Source: Candidatus Omnitrophota bacterium (GTDB lineage: Bacteria; Omnitrophota; Gorgyraeia; Zapsychrales; Fredricksoniimonadaceae). Taken from it: 64,000 bases of DNA. Below, piece after piece: positions 2,151 to 59,920 of this stretch (the first letter of the stretch is position 1; each line of letters starts with the position of its first letter). The position numbers and the translations under genes were made by a program. Below the pieces are notes generated by a model. It saw nothing but the letters and a program-made list of their open reading frames with translations. It ran no database searches and was not told the origin of the DNA. The stretch spans positions 39,955 to 103,954 of the forward strand of contig JAGWOI010000003.1 in assembly GCA_028870995.1 (NCBI GenBank), in the 5' to 3' direction.

Positions 2151-3443
2151 ATGCAACAAGAAGCTAATAAACACTTGAGGCAGCCTTGCGATTATGTTAT
2201 CTTAGTAAACCTTATGGCACAACGAATGAGAAATAAAAAATTAAGCGTGACCGCTGCCCAGGAACTGCAGATCCTGCGCAATATCGTCGATATCGCCTCC
2301 TCGGAACTTGACCTGAGCCTGACTTTGCAGCTGATTGTCAAGATCGTCACGGAAATGACGGACGCGGACTCCGTTTTTATCTACCTTTTCGATGAGAGCA
2401 AGCATAATTTAGTGCTCATGGCGTCCAAAACCCCCCACAAAAAGGAACTGGGGAACGTGGTCTTGAAAGCCGGTGAGGGCATCACCGGATGGGTGGCCCG
2501 TGAAAACAAGACCGTGGCCATCAAGGCGCGCGCTTATAAGGACCCCCGCTTTAAGAATTTCGATGTCCTGCCGGAAGACCGTTACGAGGCTTTTTTGTCC
2601 GTGCCCATCATTTATAAGGGAAGGGCGGTGGGTGTGGTCAATGTGCAGCACAAGAGCCAGCAGGATTATTCCGCCGAAACCGTCAATTTGATCGAAATGA
2701 TCGCCAAGCAGGTCGGCGGCATCATCGAGCATGCCCGGCTTTTCGAGGAAACCAAGAAAAAAGCCCTGCAATTCGACTCCCTGATCAAGGTCAGCCATTC
2801 CATTACCAGTGAAAATTACCTGGACGAGATCCTCAACTTGATCGTGGTGGTCACCGCGGAGATGCTTAATTCCAAAATCTGCTCCATTATGCTTTTGGAT
2901 GAGAAGGGTGAGGAGCTGTCCATCAAGGCCACCCAGTCTTTGAGTTCGGAATACAAATTGAAGCCCAATATCAAGGTGGACAACAGCCTGACCGGCTCGG
3001 TCATCAGGACAAAGAAGCCTGCCATTGTTTATGATGTGAGCAAGGATGAAAAATATTTTTACCGCGACCTGGCCCTCAAGGAAGGGTTGACCTCCATGGT
3101 GGCCGTGCCGATGATCGTCAAAGATCTGGCCATCGGTGTCATCAATGTGTACACCAAACAGCACCATGATTTTACCGGGGAAGAGGTGGGTGTTTTACAG
3201 ATGATCGCCAACCAGGCGGCGGTGGCCGTGGAAAATACCAAATTGATGCAGGAGGCCTTGAAAGCCAAGGAAGCCCTGGAGACCCGAAAGCTGATCGAGA
3301 GGGCCAAAGGGATCCTCATGAAAATGAACAATCTTTCGGAAGACGCTGCCTACCGCCTCATCCACAAGAAGAGCATGGACACCTGCCGGTCCATGAAAGA
3401 AATTGCCGAATCCGTCATCCTGATGTCGGAACTCCAGAAGTGA
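2151..3443 (+). CDS. GAF-GAF-ANTAR RNA-binding transcription antitermination regulator
   Basis: The C-terminal about 60 aa (…ALETRKLIERAKGILMKMNNLSEDAAYRLIHKKSMDTCRSMKEIAESVIL) match the ANTAR domain (AmiR/NasR/NasT family). Two preceding GAF-like modules are present (…FIYLFDESKHNLVLMASK…, …SIMLLDEKGEELSIKA…VAVPMIVKDLAIGVINVY). There is no receiver domain. The ATG at 2214 (MAQRMRN…) is an alternative and perhaps more likely start. Confidence 0.8.
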   Translation: MQQEANKHLRQPCDYVILVNLMAQRMRNKKLSVTAAQELQILRNIVDIASSELDLSLTLQLIVKIVTEMTDADSVFIYLFDESKHNLVLMASKTPHKKELGNVVLKAGEGITGWVARENKTVAIKARAYKDPRFKNFDVLPEDRYEAFLSVPIIYKGRAVGVVNVQHKSQQDYSAETVNLIEMIAKQVGGIIEHARLFEETKKKALQFDSLIKVSHSITSENYLDEILNLIVVVTAEMLNSKICSIMLLDEKGEELSIKATQSLSSEYKLKPNIKVDNSLTGSVIRTKKPAIVYDVSKDEKYFYRDLALKEGLTSMVAVPMIVKDLAIGVINVYTKQHHDFTGEEVGVLQMIANQAAVAVENTKLMQEALKAKEALETRKLIERAKGILMKMNNLSEDAAYRLIHKKSMDTCRSMKEIAESVILMSELQK

Positions 3444-3543
3444 AAACCCTTTAGGAAAAATTTTCTATTGACAAAATCCTTCAAGCAGGTGTAGGATGCA
3501 ATCCCTATAACAGGAACAGCAAAAGATTTTTAGGGAGGGGTCT

Positions 3544-3762
3544 ATGATACAAGCCAACAGGGTCAAAAGAACAGCAATCAAATCGAGCGCGGCCAAGGGC
3601 AGGACGGAAGAAGTTTCAAGCCCAAAATCCGGCGGCAATGGTGATTTGCATCAGAAAATTTCCGAAAAGGCCTATGAGCTTTATTTGGAGCGTGGCTGTG
3701 AGCATGGCCATGACGCGGAAGATTGGGCCCATGCGGAAAAGATTGTCAAAGGCCAGCTCTAA
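3544..3762 (+). CDS. small DUF2934-like protein
   Basis: 72 aa. The C-terminal motif ISEKAYELYLERGCEHGHDAEDWAHAE resembles the DUF2934 signature (…AYELWEARGRPHGHDLEDWLQAE…), recalled from memory. A GGGAGGGG RBS lies upstream. Confidence 0.5.
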   Translation: MIQANRVKRTAIKSSAAKGRTEEVSSPKSGGNGDLHQKISEKAYELYLERGCEHGHDAEDWAHAEKIVKGQL

Positions 3763-3771
3763 ATTTTTTTC

Positions 3772-3799
3772 TTGACAAATATTTTTTAGCAGCTATACT
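3772..3799 (+). promoter_or_regulatory. sigma70-like promoter for the amtB-glnK leader (TTGACA-16nt-TATACT)
   Basis: TTGACA at 3772-3777 and TATACT at 3794-3799, upstream of a structured leader. A very similar cTTGACAAA lies at about 3466 upstream of the DUF2934 gene. Confidence 0.4.
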
Positions 3800-3912
3800 T
3801 TCCATAGTTGCAGTATAGATATGTCTGGGGCGTTGACGTTCCGGATTGAAACACGGGCAATGAAGGTCCTCTTGGTGAACATAAGTAACTGAGGGGATTT
3901 TTTTATTTTATA

Positions 3913-3995
3913 GCCGCCTTGAACAGGCGGCGGGCATTGGAGTCCGGTTTTTTTAAGCAACGGCAGCTTAGCTTAAAGAAACCGGACTTTTTTTG
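3913..3995 (+). promoter_or_regulatory. amtB leader attenuator: two hairpins (hexaloop AUUGGA) overlapping an intrinsic terminator
   Basis: P1 is GCCGCCU-UGAAC-AGGCGGC (3913-3931). P2 is (C)GGGC-AUUGGA-GUCC(G) (3931-3946). The 3' strand of P2 is the start of the terminator stem AGUCCGGUUU (3941-3950) pairing with AAACCGGACU (3979-3988), followed by UUUUUUU (3989-3995). P2 and the terminator are mutually exclusive. Confidence 0.5.
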
Positions 3996-4018
3996 TCCTT
4001 AAAACAGGGAGGTTGGTT

Positions 4019-4144
4019 ATGAAAGCGACCCACACAAGCACCAAGAAATTGAGGCATGCCGAATTGATTGCCGGGATGTTCGCCTTTTTGCAGATTTTCC
4101 TGGCTTTCGGGTTGTTTTTCGCGTTGAAAGAGCATCTTGTCTAA
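4019..4144 (+). CDS. small hydrophobic ORF (41 aa) between the attenuator and amtB
   Basis: ATG at 4019 preceded by GGGAGG. It encodes MKATHTSTKKLRHAELIAGMFAFLQIFLAFGLFFALKEHLV, a basic N-terminus plus one TM-like helix. It is below the ORF-track size cutoff. Whether it is coding is uncertain. Confidence 0.3.
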   Translation: MKATHTSTKKLRHAELIAGMFAFLQIFLAFGLFFALKEHLV

Positions 4145-4172
4145 CCAGTCATAAAACAGGAGGAAAAAAGTA

Positions 4173-5435
4173 ATGGGAACAACACCAGCAAATCCCCTCA
4201 ATAACGGGGACATCGCATGGGTCCTGACTTCAGCCGCCTTGGTTTTGGCGATGACGGCTCCGGGCCTGGCCTTCTTTTATGGAGGCATGGTAAGGCGTAA
4301 GAATATCAACAGCATTTTGATGCAATGTTTCATGTGTTTGGCCATTGTCAGCGTTTTGTGGGTGGTCGTCGGCTACAGCCTGGCCTTCGGTCCCGGCGCC
4401 CCGGGTTTCTTGAAGGGGTTGATCGGCGGCTTCAACTGGGCCATGCTCAAGAATGTGTCCATGAGCGCGCCTGATCCGTATGCGCCGACCATTCCTCATC
4501 AGGCCTATATGATCTTCCAGTTGATGTTCGCGGTCATCACACCGGCCCTGGCCATCGGTTCTTTCGCCGAAAGGGTCAAGTTTTCCGGATGGGTCTGGTG
4601 GACGGTTTTATGGCTGCTGATCGTTTACTGTCCGGTGGCCCACATGGTCTGGTCCCATGACGGGATCGAAGGCCAGTGGGGCGTTCTGGACTTCGCCGGC
4701 GGTACCGTCGTGCACATGAATGCCGGTATCGCAGGTTTGGCCAGCTGCCTTTATTTAGGCAAGCGCATCGGCACAAACAAGCCCGGCATGCATAACGTGC
4801 CCTTTGTTATGCTGGGGGCTTCCTTATTGTGGTTCGGATGGTTTGGTTTCAACGCCGGTTCGGCGGTCTCGGCCGGCGCCCTGGCGACCAGCGCTTTCGT
4901 TGTCACCAACACCGCGACCGCGGCCGCGGCCATCAGCTGGGTGGTCATGGAGTGGGTCTTCGCAGGCGCTCCCACCATTGTCGGTGCCTGTTCGGGTGCG
5001 GTGGCCGGTTTAGTTGCCATCACCCCGGCCTCTGGTTTCGTGGATGCCGGCGGTTCCTTGTGGATCGGTTTCCTGGTCAGCGTGTTCTGCTACTGCATGG
5101 TGGCCTTCGTGAAACCGAAATTCGGCTATGACGATACTCTGGATGCCTTCGGCGTGCATTATATCGGCGGGCTTTGGGGTGCCTTGGCCACCGGTCTGTT
5201 TGCCGTCAAAGCCGTCAACTCGGCCGGTTCAGGTGTGTTTGATGGCAACCCGGGCCAGTTTTTGACCCAGGCCAAAGGCTGCTTGTTGACCACGGTCTAC
5301 ACCTTTATAATGACCCTGGTCATCTGCTTCATCGTCGATAAGGTTCTCGGCGGCTTCCGCGCCACACCGGAAGATGAGGCCATTGGCATCGATTTAAGCC
5401 AGCACCATGAGCGTGCTTACACCATCTTGGACTAA
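4173..5435 (+). CDS. amtB: ammonium transporter
   Basis: 420 aa polytopic protein with Amt family motifs (…[14 protein letters not shown]…, the twin-His region …[13 protein letters not shown]…). Confidence 0.9.
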
Positions 5436-5457: not shown

Positions 5458-5799
5458 ATGAAATTAGTCATCGCTATCATTCAGCCTTATAAGCTCGAAG
5501 ATGTCAAGCAAGAGCTCTATGCGGCGAATGTGAACCTGATCACCGTCTCCGAAGTCCTGGGGCACGGCCGCCAGGTAGGGGTTGATGAGTACTACCGCGG
5601 GGTCAAGGAAACAGGCAATTTGCTGCGCAAAATAAGGCTCGAAATCGCAGTCAACGAGGATTTCGTTGAACCCACGATCAAGGCCATCATTAAAGGCGCC
5701 CGCACCGGCAAAATAGGTGACGGTAAGATCTTTGTCGTCGACCTGCCCAGATGCATCCGCATCCGTACAGGCGAGGAGGGGTCCAAAGCCATCGGTTAA
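5458..5799 (+). CDS. glnK: nitrogen regulatory protein P-II
   Basis: 113 aa starting [18 protein letters not shown], with a T-loop [14 protein letters not shown] that conserves the Tyr and a B-loop [12 protein letters not shown] strong AAAGGAGG RBS is present. The ORF-track start at 5407 overlaps amtB and is unlikely. The position immediately after amtB is canonical for glnK. Confidence 0.85.
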
Positions 5800-5830
5800 G
5801 GACTGTTTTTGAAGAGTGGTAAAGCGATAA

Positions 5831-5875
5831 AGTGGTAGAGTGGTAGGCGGGCTTTATTCCTATCACTCTACCACT
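5831..5875 (+). other. 17-bp near-perfect hairpin after glnK, preceded by GTGGTA direct repeats
   Basis: AGTGGTAGAGTGGTAGG (5831-5847) pairs with CCTATCACTCTACCACT (5859-5875) with one G·U pair and an 11-nt loop. There is no U-tract. Upstream are the direct repeats AGTGGTAaagcgataaAGTGGTAgAGTGGTAgg. It could be a factor-independent or Rho-assisted terminator, or a protein-binding site. Confidence 0.4.
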
Positions 5876-5895
5876 TTCCGCAGGCATAAAAAGCC

Positions 5896-5924
5896 TTGAC
5901 AACATTTGCCTTAGAGAGTAGTAT
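5896..5924 (+). promoter_or_regulatory. sigma70-like promoter for glnA (TTGACA-17nt-TAGTAT)
   Basis: TTGACA at 5896-5901 and TAGTAT at 5919-5924. Confidence 0.45.
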
Positions 5925-5939
5925 TCACCATATTTTCCT

Positions 5940-5990
5940 GAGGGCATTGGCGTCCTCCTTGAAAGATATTTCAGGGAGGACTTTGTGTTT
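5940..5990 (+). promoter_or_regulatory. glnA leader: hexaloop hairpin (AUUGGC) overlapping an intrinsic terminator
   Basis: GAGGGC-AUUGGC-GUCCUC (5940-5957). The terminator stem GUCCUCCUUGAAA (5952-5964) pairs with UUUCAGGGAGGAC (5970-5981), followed by UUUGUGUUUU. The motif GGGCATTGGnGTCC is shared with the amtB leader in the same position relative to the terminator. Confidence 0.5.
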
Positions 5991-6017
5991 TAGAAACAAT
6001 TTATATCAGGAGGTTTT

Positions 6018-8156
6018 ATGAGTCAAACCCGCGAAGAAGTCATCCAGGCGGCGGAGGAATGCTGCTGCAACGGTTCGTTCAGCGAGCATCTGCCCGAACA
6101 TTTCGGCGAAAACGTCTTTAGTCTCAAGGTGATGAAAGAAATGCTTTCACCCAAAGCGTACGCTTCCATCGAAAAAACGATGAAGGAAGGCGGCAAGCTG
6201 GACGCTTCCATTGCCGATGAAGTGGCTGAAGCCATGAAGAAATGGGCTGTGGCCAAAGGCGCCACCCACTATACGCACTGGTTTCAGCCCATGACCGGTG
6301 TTACCGCTGAAAAGCATGATTCCTTTATCGATTGGGACGGCGACGGCGGGGTCATCCTGAGTTTTTCCGGCAAGAACCTGATCCAGGGTGAACCGGATGC
6401 TTCTTCGTTCCCTTCCGGAGGTTTGCGCGCGACCTTCGAAGCCCGCGGCTATACCGGCTGGGATCCGACGTCTCCGGCCTTTATTAAAGAAGGCCCTGAA
6501 GCCACCACCCTGTGCATCCCGACCTTTTATATCGGGTATCACGGCGAGGCATTGGACAAGAAAACACCTCTGCTGCGTTCCATGGTGGCCTTGAGCAAGC
6601 AGATCTGCCGCCTGGCCAACCTATTCGGCATTGATACCAAGGGCAAGCGTGCCTACTGCACCTTGGGTCCTGAGCAGGAATATTTCCTTATCGACAAGGC
6701 CCATTATCAGGCCCGTCCTGACCTGGTGCAGACCGGTCGCACCCTGTTCGGCAAGAAACCGGCCAAGCATCAGCAGCAGGAAGACCAATACTTTGGTGCC
6801 ATTAAACCGCGCATCATGGGCTTCATGGAAGATCTGGACCGCACCCTCTGGGGCTTAGGCATGCCGTCCAAGACCCGTCATAATGAAGTGGCTCCGGCCC
6901 AGTATGAAATCGCGCCGATCTATGAAGATTTGAATACCGGTGTTGACCATAACATGATGGCCATGGAGATCATGCGCCAGATCGCTGACAAGCATGGGTT
7001 GGCCTGCCTGCTGCATGAGAAGCCTTTTGCCGGCATCAACGGTTCCGGCAAACACAACAACTGGTCCGTGGTCGGCCCCGACGGCAAGAATTGGCTGTAT
7101 CCGGGCAAGACCCCGCATGAAAATGCCAAATTTGTGACCACCCTGTGCGCGGTCATCAAGGCGGTTGATACCTATGCCGACCTGCTGCGCGTGGCGGTGG
7201 CTTCCGCCGGCAATGATCACCGTTTGGGCGCCAACGAAGCGCCTCCGGCCATCATCTCCATTTTCTTAGGAGACCAGCTGACCGATATCATCGAGCAGAT
7301 CGAAAAAGGCGGCGCCAAGACATCCAGGGAAGGCAGCACCATCCATGTGGGCGTCGATTCTCTGCCCATCCTGGCCAAGGACACGACCGACCGCAACCGC
7401 ACCTCGCCGTTCGCTTTCACCGGCGCCAAGTTTGAGTTCCGCGCCGTCGGTTCCAACCAGAACCCTTCAGCCGCCAACATGGTGCTTAACACTATCGTTG
7501 CTGAAGCGATTTCCGATATTTGTGACCAGCTGGAAGCCGACAAGAAAGCCGGCAAGGATTTCAATGCCAGCCTGCAAAAAGTTCTCCAGGATATCGTCAA
7601 GAAGCACAAGAAGGTGCTTTTTAACGGCGATGGTTACACCGATGCCTGGCATAAGGAAGCCAAGAAGCGCGGCCTTCCCAATATGAAAACCACGCCGGAA
7701 GCCTTGGAAGTGTTGAAAGAAAAGAAGAACATCAATGTCTTTACCAAGCACGGTGTGTTGACGGAGGTGGAAGTGGCCTCCCGTTATGAGATCAATAAAC
7801 ATGCCTATGTGACGGTACAGGTGCTGGAAGGTGACTGCGCCCTGCAAATGGCCAAAACGCAGCTTATCCCTGCGGCCATCGAATACCAGAAGCAGTTGGC
7901 GGACAACATCAAGGCTGTCGGCTCAGCCGGCAAGACCACGGCGCAGAAAAAACTTCTCAAGGAAGTCTCTGCCTTGATCGACGAGGCCTTGGGGGATTGC
8001 GACGGCCTGGAAGCGGCGTTGGCCAAGCATGACGGCTTGAAGATTAGCGCCGCCATGGCCAAGCTGCGCGGCCCCATCGACGAATTGGAAGGCCTGGTGC
8101 CGGCCCAGTTGTGGCCTGTCCCAAGCTACGCCGAGATGTTGTTGATGAACTATTAA
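6018..8156 (+). CDS. glnN: glutamine synthetase, type III
   Basis: 712 aa, the size class of GS-III. GS catalytic-region motifs are present (…[11 protein letters not shown]…, …[10 protein letters not shown]…) together with a long C-terminal extension. It is next to amtB-glnK and upstream of gltBD. Confidence 0.85.
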
Positions 8157-53351: not shown

Positions 53352-53436
<85 letters not shown>

Positions 53437-59842: not shown

Positions 59843-59920
59843 GGCCCCATCGTCTAGCCTGGTCCAGGACGTCTGCTTCTCAGGCAGAAAACACCGGTTC
59901 AAATCCGGTTGGGGCTACCA
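59843..59920 (+). tRNA. tRNA-Glu (anticodon CUC)
   Basis: Hand-folded. Acceptor GGCCCCA/TGGGGCT (G·U at 1-72), D-arm GTCT…AGGAC, anticodon stem TCTGC/GCAGA with loop TTCTCAG, T-arm ACCGG-TTCAAAT-CCGGT, discriminator A and CCA. Confidence 0.8.

Follow-up and report, generated by a model that had tools for sequence, protein, structure and literature searches.

The DNA analysed here, referred to as the window, is a stretch of 64,000 nucleotides (nt) from a Candidatus Omnitrophota bacterium (contig JAGWOI010000003.1) that carries a run of genes for ammonium uptake and nitrogen assimilation, together with a gene for a protein with two GAF domains and an ANTAR domain. Positions 3913-3995, in the leader of the operon containing the ammonium transporter gene amtB, are the subject of this report. 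Judged from its predicted structure, conservation and neighbourhood, this element is likely an ANTAR antiterminator/terminator switch, most probably run by the adjacent GAF-GAF-ANTAR protein. It is the second (module B) of two tandem terminator/antiterminator modules, the first being module A at 3823-3909. An earlier note had described the element as a textbook attenuator directly upstream of the amtB ribosome-binding site (RBS), in which two hairpins, P1 and P2, are both mutually exclusive with a terminator. The leader contains the following features:

3772-3799, + strand: sigma-70-like promoter of the amtB leader (TTGACA, 16-nt spacer, TATACT; 11 of 12 consensus matches)
3823-3846, + strand: P1A, recruitment-type hairpin of module A (9 bp, hexaloop GUUGAC, -12.5 kcal/mol)
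3847-3854, + strand: 8-nt linker between P1A and P2A
3855-3869, + strand: P2A (GGGC-AAUGAAG-GUCC), antiterminator hairpin of module A, with a 7-nt loop
3866-3909, + strand: terminator A (11-bp stem 3866-3876/3888-3898, loop 3877-3887, then U7-A-U4 at 3898-3909; -16.5 kcal/mol)
3913-3931, + strand: P1 of the earlier note (GCCGCCU-UGAAC-AGGCGGC; GC-rich, 7 bp, -12.3 kcal/mol, z -4.4), between terminator A and P2B
3932-3945, + strand: P2B, the P2 of the earlier note (GGGC-AUUGGA-GUCC; -3.4 kcal/mol), an ANTAR-type hexaloop antiterminator hairpin
3939-3994, + strand: terminator B (helix 3939/3941-3958 with 3971-3988/3990, 12-nt loop, T-run 3988-3994)

Both P1 and P2 are present where the earlier note had placed them, and the U7 that it reported corresponds to the seven T at 3988-3994, the first of which can pair with A3941 and the last of which is followed by G3995. 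Its 10-bp stem with an internal mini-hairpin has to be replaced by one continuous helix of 18-20 bp (-25.4 to -27.4 kcal/mol) closing a 12-nt loop. The segment 3905-4000 has a minimum free energy (MFE) of -48.8 kcal/mol (z = -8.79), and none of 200 shuffled sequences was equally stable. Terminator B combines a stable, G+C-containing stem-loop with a U-tract directly behind it and a structure conserved in relatives, as an intrinsic terminator does. A simple terminator scanner with a loop limit of 8 nt overlooked it.

Nucleotides 3941/2-3945/6 belong to the 3' half of P2B as well as to the 5' arm of terminator B, as the earlier note had recognised, so that the two structures are mutually exclusive. 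The competition is heavily one-sided. Even though a fifth pair (C3931-G3946) is possible and brings P2B to -7.2 kcal/mol with dangling ends, the best P2B-containing structure of 3913-3995 lies 7.8 kcal/mol above the MFE, and the pair probability of P2B is about 2e-6. In co-transcriptional snapshots, transcripts with ends at 3946-3958 or 3980-3984 have P2B in their MFE structure; at ends 3970-3975 upstream pairings displace it, and it gives way to terminator B once 3988 has been transcribed. The default state of the leader is termination. Since P2B loses unaided by about 8 kcal/mol, the switch needs a trans factor that holds P2B, which is what is expected of a protein-dependent antiterminator. 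When P2B is forced to form, an A/U-rich upper hairpin of 13 bp can still fold, but it stops 4-5 nt short of the U-tract; the G-C base of the helix, needed for termination, is thereby removed. The folding upholds the antiterminator-versus-terminator geometry in an amtB operon leader on which the earlier note had based its textbook attenuator, and, by the criterion for refutation that the note itself had set, refutes a self-contained attenuator, P2 being some 8 kcal/mol worse and no competitor on its own. The location is also to be corrected: module B precedes the RBS of a small open reading frame (ORF; GGGAGG, 4007-4012), and amtB itself starts at 4173.

Comparison with Omnitrophota relatives used an alignment of 18 module B sequences (A1) and one of 17 module A leaders (A2). 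The helix of terminator B shows compensatory changes in 10 of its 18 pairs with 92% of cells paired, none of 500 shuffles being as high on all five measures, and its T-run is invariant. P2B is paired in all 18 sequences (100%). Its hexaloop has A at position 1 (A1) in 17 of the 18 and G at position 4 (G4) in every one, and the GG-C/G--C framework, which includes the C-G closing pair, does not vary. Changes are confined to the 3' side (GUCC, GCUC or GCCC), and each of these variants pairs with the invariant GGGC. Such strong conservation of GGGCA..G at the sequence level points to sequence-specific recognition and not to pairing alone. Directly 3' of the terminator-B U-tract lies a further short element, UGUCC at 3994-3998 (AUUGCC(C) in relatives, columns 70-74 of alignment A1), which is also kept. 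In relatives this element is complementary to GGGCAAU of P2B. An outer helix between it and GGGCA, the 5' half of P2B, which would enclose the terminator, was considered and set aside: although 79% of its cells are paired, it shows no covariation and does not exceed shuffles. Release of the protein or stabilisation of the mRNA 5' end are among the possibilities for this outer element in read-through transcripts.

The features of P2B are those of known ANTAR targets, which are small stems with hexaloops carrying A1 and G4, conserved closing pairs and a second hairpin overlapping the terminator (PMC3369931). As in the EutV/eut, NasR/nasF and AmiR/amiE systems, P2B has an A1/G4 hexaloop with a conserved closing pair, and the 3' half of the P2 hairpin forms the 5' base of the terminator. 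Likewise, an ANTAR gene encoding the G4-binding residues lies nearby and the targets belong to nitrogen metabolism. The crystal structure of EutV showed a dimer holding one hexaloop and led to redefinition of the minimal motif as a single hexaloop (PMC8934654). P2B, with a stem of 4-5 bp, agrees with this minimal definition (a G4 hexaloop closed by at least 3 bp). Taken together, the A1/G4 hexaloop, the C-G closing pair, the overlap with the terminator and the GAF-GAF-ANTAR gene upstream argue for an ANTAR-type antiterminator. Genes for ammonium transporters, P-II proteins and glutamine synthase were among the ANTAR targets predicted across phyla in 2012 (Ramesh et al.; PMC3369931). As ANTAR control of such genes has been predicted and, in Geobacter, demonstrated, the proposed switch would be of a known kind.

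The specificity of this signature was gauged with a generic scan of both strands of the window (128 kb), in which no sequence was preset: a 4-bp stem, a loop of 6-8 nt with A1 and G4, and a 3' arm opening a terminator whose stem has at least 7 bp and leads into a T-run. Exactly three sites matched (3855, 3932 and 5942), each of them in the leader of a nitrogen-assimilation gene; in 100 dinucleotide shuffles the mean was 0.15 and no shuffle gave more than 2. Seven matches to a relaxed motif (5169, 12357, 42288, 54569, 56540, 57175 and 57978) have no terminator downstream, failed the generic scan and were discarded. A scan of metagenomes with the RNA pattern gave at least 120 matches, mostly chance, from which 11 with a downstream terminator were used. 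Among the matches listed, all 11 contigs, retrieved by the RNA motif alone, share the gene neighbourhood of the window. A GAF-ANTAR gene is present on six of these 11 listed contigs and absent from L051 despite room upstream.

The genes around the leader are:

2151-3443, + strand: GAF-GAF-ANTAR gene, encoding the presumed trans-acting antiterminator (likely start ATG at 2214, giving 409 aa)
3544-3762, + strand: DUF2934 gene, between the ANTAR gene and the amtB leader
4019-4144, + strand: conserved small ORF (41 aa, one hydrophobic helix, strong RBS GGGAGG at 4007-4012), first cistron past the switch
4173-5435, + strand: amtB (Pfam Ammonium_transp, 1.9e-114)
5458-5799, + strand: P-II/glnK-like gene (Pfam P-II, 7.5e-25)
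6018-8156, + strand: gene for type III glutamine synthetase (GSIII)

The order ANTAR, DUF2934, small ORF, amtB, glnK, GSIII is conserved across Omnitrophota, the glnK matches in this comparison reflecting homology at the DNA level alone, and in most loci the RNA motif occurs in synteny with the ANTAR gene. The ANTAR gene is the only one in the window and lies 0.5 kb upstream of module B. Pfam assigns its product two GAF domains and an ANTAR domain, the latter at 2e-21. Homologues come from Candidatus Omnitrophota metagenome-assembled genomes (63-90% identity) and, being 409-411 aa long and aligning from residue 20-22, make the start at 2214 likely. Alignment of the ANTAR domain with EutV (6WSH/6WW6, E = 1.9e-9), Rv1626 and NasR in the PDB is free of gaps. 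The residues of EutV that contact RNA have been listed, with R142, K149, E160 and Y164 holding the flipped G4 (PMC8934654). All four are identical in the window protein, as are K143 and M172, and two further changes, K147R and N173D, are conservative. The first GAF domain (residues 37-196) matches best the GAF domain of PtsP/EI-Ntr (3ci6, 8.4e-22; 3trc), and homologues carry the Joint Genome Institute (JGI) name 'signal transduction protein with GAF and PtsI domain'. This protein probably binds the hairpins described here. The product of the small ORF has counterparts of 29-46 aa in relatives (46-88% identity in tblastn) that end in ...LGLFWAFKAHLV*; it has no Pfam match and may be a small membrane partner of AmtB. 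Further downstream lie genes for a glutamine amidotransferase and for an NAD synthase with an N-terminal CN-hydrolase domain, the latter probably glutamine-dependent.

Module A presents the dual-hairpin layout of P1A, an 8-nt linker, P2A and terminator A, whose 5' arm opens with the GUCC of P2A (overlap 3866-3869). In alignment A2, P1A has 98.7% of cells paired and compensatory changes in 6 of 9 pairs. Its loop reads AnnGAU in 14 of the 17 leaders, with A at position 1 in the same number, and G4 and the closing G.U and C-G pairs are invariant. Similarly, GGGCA, the loop G4 and GUCCUCU are invariant in P2A across the 17 sequences, A1 and G4 being kept in loops of 7-8 nt. Terminator A shows compensatory changes in 4 of its 11 pairs, and its cells are 92% paired; none of 500 shuffles reached the observed covariation score, percentage of paired cells or number of compensatory cells. 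A TTGACA/TATAAT-like promoter was also read by eye at the equivalent place in the leaders of L009, L010 and L031, and no further promoter-like site was found between 3772-3799 and the small ORF. Two local variants were noted in relatives. Between terminator A and module B, three relatives (L017:7740-7812, L019:7365-7450 and L020:7405-7505) have in common some 70-90 nt of inserted sequence (ggttcgactca...gagcgagtc...gacgagtcgaaggatttt), which looks like a small repeated or mobile element that landed in the leader. Module B of L013 (7418-7480) has a hexaloop hairpin (GGGCAUUGAGGCC) without a U-tract, and the downstream arm of its next hairpin covers the small-ORF RBS AAGGAG, which may be a translational variant of the switch.

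The hairpin P1 stands apart from this scheme. The earlier note had taken both P1 and P2 to be exclusive with the terminator; this holds for P2, whereas P1 does not overlap terminator B and coexists with it in the MFE structure (pair probability 0.997). Its loop is UGAAC or UUGAACA (5 or 7 nt) and not an A1/G4 hexaloop. The eut layout has two hairpins of at least 3 bp set 5-12 nt apart, whereas P1 and P2B have a linker of 0 nt, C3931 even being shareable. In most relatives P2B lies directly 3' of the terminator-A U-tract without any P1; only a minority (the window, L001, L012, L013, L016, L019 and L021) have a hairpin at the position of P1, and none of the 11 metagenomic leaders, among the matches listed, has an insert there. 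Given its loop, the absent linker and its absence from most relatives, P1 is treated here as a lineage-specific accessory or insulating hairpin rather than as a conserved recruitment hairpin; that it acts as a degenerate recruitment hairpin appears rather unlikely. In L001 the position is taken by another hairpin, which has 19 nt like P1 in the window and differs from it by three both-sided pair changes, suggesting that structure at this position is maintained in the sub-lineage, for which two sequences are weak evidence. A dispersed element similar to repetitive extragenic palindromes was also considered for P1, as CCGCC-N3-9-GGCGG is found six times where 1.45 occurrences are expected. The remaining copies do not match it in sequence, and the idea was dropped.

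The third module precedes the GSIII gene and consists of a promoter, a single hairpin and an overlapping terminator:

5896-5991, + strand: GSIII leader module, with promoter TTGACA-17-TAGTAT at 5896-5924
5940-5957, + strand: hairpin GAGGGC-AUUGGC-GUCCUC (14-mer pattern at 5942-5955)
5952-5981, + strand: terminator of 13 bp, then UUUGUGUUUU, overlapping the hairpin at 5952-5957

The -10 box is just 17 nt away from GGGC, and the hairpin starts about 10 nt past the predicted transcription start. Across GSIII leaders and the DUF2934 leaders of relatives, the hairpin begins 16-18 nt past the -10 box, a distance so short that no P1 is possible in transcripts from that promoter. The layout recurs in L009, L011, L016, L024-L026 and L028. 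L001, L003, L007, L010 and L013 have lost it, the close relative L001 (9757-9947) keeping a near-identical promoter; presence in some loci and loss in others indicate that modules are gained and lost rapidly. Two hexaloop hairpins, GGGCAAGGGCGUCC and GGGCAUUGAAGUCC, lie some 36-42 nt from each other in the GSIII leaders of L025 (7439-7560) and L026 (9749-9880), and of the two just the second overlaps a terminator; this linker far exceeds what EutV tolerates. In several relatives, the DUF2934 gene has a single-hexaloop-plus-terminator leader of its own (L003:7311, L004:11510, L005:5934, L006:2532, L007:7316 and L030:13106), which adds this protein of unassigned function to the presumed nitrogen regulon. 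In the window, the DUF2934 gene (3544-3762; upstream stretch 3444-3543) is without that leader and has instead a UCCCUA...UAGGGA pairing, which could mask its RBS. Behind the P-II gene, at 5829-5876 (+ strand), lies a perfect hairpin of considerable length, AAGUGGUAGAGUG ... CACUCUACCACUU, that has no clear U-tract. It may be a structure at the end of the operon or, upstream of the GSIII promoter, an element for RNA processing or stability.

The closest precedent is GnfR of Geobacter sulfurreducens, a REC-ANTAR protein that binds CAGGCAANGGCGCC, an element overlapping the terminators before nifH, glnK and amtB; its RNA binding and antitermination have been demonstrated experimentally, and the site is described as a single conserved element (Ueki & Lovley 2010, PMC2995071). 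Read as GGC-AANGGC-GCC, the Geobacter site is an A1/G4 hexaloop nearly identical to GGGC-AUUGGC-GUCC of the GSIII leader in the window. The biological logic of GnfK/GnfR matches as well, ammonium uptake and assimilation being switched on. However, GnfR is a response regulator phosphorylated by GnfK under sigma-54/GnfLM control, whereas the window protein has two GAF domains and no receiver, the promoters look sigma-70-like, and tandem modules share one leader in another phylum. The same protein architecture sets the window apart from the eut, nas and ami systems, whose regulators are REC-, NIT- or AmiR_N-ANTAR proteins and not a one-component GAF-GAF-ANTAR protein of the phylum Omnitrophota. 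As for the stacking, consecutive terminators with an antiterminator each, both of which have to be overcome, are known from tandem riboswitches and T-boxes and from the multi-terminator eut locus. The four eut terminators are spread along the operon, whereas those of the window are stacked in one leader; unlike other tandem cis-regulators, both modules appear to answer to one protein, the second without a recruitment hairpin of its own. Two stacked terminators should tighten the OFF state and make the response steeper.

Several points weigh against an ANTAR switch run by the neighbouring protein. Antitermination by EutV requires both hairpins and the correct linker (PMC3369931; PMC8934654), and in eut linkers of 5-12 nt work while 3 or 14 nt impair function (PMC3369931); neither module B nor the GSIII module has a canonical P1. 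In module A, the P1A loop of the window has G and not A at position 1, and P2A loops have 7-8 nt instead of 6. Three residues with which EutV contacts the RNA backbone differ in the window protein (R168H, R175C and R177S). The P2 stems show no both-sided compensatory changes, their 5' half GGGC being invariant, so that their support comes from conservation and 100% pairing and not from covariation. No Rfam family covers the element, hence there is no curated model to score. The sensing of glutamine and/or 2-oxoglutarate by the PtsP-like GAF domain, as proposed below, is drawn by analogy, and the whole case is computational.

Among other explanations, the one that fares best is that a different trans factor stabilises P2, be it a metabolite (as in a glutamine riboswitch), a small RNA or another RNA-binding protein such as P-II or glutamine synthetase, with the ANTAR protein having its targets elsewhere. 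The evidence linking protein and RNA is indirect, and the leader upstream of module B is structured and about 100 nt long, leaving this conceivable. Yet a ligand pocket would need more than the conserved unit, a hairpin of only 14 nt, and the GSIII version starts about 10 nt past the predicted transcription start. No riboswitch family matched even at E <= 10: at this threshold, Rfam gave only sub-threshold chance matches over 3400-4250 (microRNA models and isrK) and no glutamine or other riboswitch, and at gathering score the whole window yielded two transfer RNAs only (genes at 53352-53433 and 59843-59917, + strand). With an A1/G4 loop and C-G closing pair that are a specific ANTAR signature, and with the motif and the ANTAR gene syntenic in most loci, we regard another trans factor as improbable.

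Still less probable is a reading in which the two structures serve, without regulation, as ordinary tandem terminators or insulators that stop transcription of the ANTAR and DUF2934 genes, the P2 hairpins being incidental. In its favour, each makes a good intrinsic terminator and is located downstream of the DUF2934 stop codon at 3762. A near-consensus promoter (3772-3799) nevertheless stands between that stop codon and the terminators and is directed into them, the same hairpin-plus-terminator unit directly follows the promoters of GSIII and, in relatives, of the DUF2934 gene, and an invariant GGGCA..G upstream of freely covarying stems would not be expected of plain terminators. Finally, we give scarcely any credence to a self-contained RNA attenuator, decided by folding kinetics, pausing, nucleoside triphosphate levels or ribosome position with no dedicated RNA-binding protein, because, although the alternative pairing is real and P2B is made about 25 nt before the 3' arm of the terminator and appears transiently in the MFE structure, it has just 4-5 bp and loses by about 8 kcal/mol (probability about 2e-6), P1 is free of terminator overlap and missing in most relatives, GGGCA..G conservation points to sequence-specific recognition, and no leader peptide is conserved. 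A 23-codon ORF (3822-3893), the only one within the leader, was rejected for this role, having no Shine-Dalgarno sequence and an ATG that is not conserved in relatives; the conserved small ORF lies downstream of both terminators.

In the proposed ANTAR-dependent mechanism, polymerase would start from the promoter at 3772-3799 and, in the OFF state, the nascent RNA would fold terminator A and, if A is passed, terminator B, so that transcripts would stop at the U-tracts near 3905 and 3994. In the ON state, a dimeric ANTAR protein, most likely the product of 2214-3443, would clamp P2A and P2B (GGGC-AnnGnn-GUCC) as they emerge from the polymerase. With GUCC held in P2, the G-C-rich base of the terminator would be lost, leaving an A/U-rich hairpin 4-5 nt from the U-tract and allowing read-through. 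The same protein-hairpin pair would control the GSIII gene. As to the signal, we infer that the regulator is active under nitrogen limitation. In EI-Ntr (PtsP), the GAF domain binds glutamine (PMC4848567), and the reference list of that paper includes work on its reciprocal regulation by 2-oxoglutarate in E. coli; if the analogy holds, RNA binding would be activated when glutamine is low and/or 2-oxoglutarate is high, turning on amtB, glnK and GSIII.

A broader possibility, put forward tentatively, is that Omnitrophota use a one-component nitrogen riboregulator, in which a PtsP-type GAF domain senses glutamine and/or 2-oxoglutarate and the ANTAR domain antiterminates on single hexaloops without P1 (module B and the GSIII and DUF2934 leaders). 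Under this scheme, the regulator may be handed from the dual-hairpin module A to the single-hairpin module B within the amtB leader. Whether single hexaloops work during transcription was left open by Walshe et al. 2022 (PMC8934654), and a one-component riboregulator of this sort, if real, would answer how they fare against a transcribing polymerase. The GAF-ANTAR architecture has been listed as uncharacterised (PMC3369931), and this would be its first function. In the literature, no characterised GAF-ANTAR regulator of amtB and no report of ANTAR proteins in Omnitrophica was found. A GAF-GAF-ANTAR one-component sensor, stacked modules in one leader and conserved single-hexaloop antiterminators are possible novelties, as read from sequence.

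For the protein family, the findings would provide a mechanism and a regulon (small ORF-amtB-glnK, GSIII and, in relatives, the DUF2934 gene) for the abundant and uncharacterised GAF-GAF-ANTAR architecture. Natural, conserved single-hexaloop antiterminators about 10 nt from the transcription start would also offer a test bed for the disputed requirement for two hairpins. For annotation, GGGC-AnnGnn-GUCC followed by a terminator is a simple and specific marker (three sites against 0.15 expected in 64 kb). To our knowledge, the Omnitrophota are a phylum without cultured representatives. Their nitrogen assimilation is probably governed after transcription initiation, and not by control of the NtrC/sigma-54 type.

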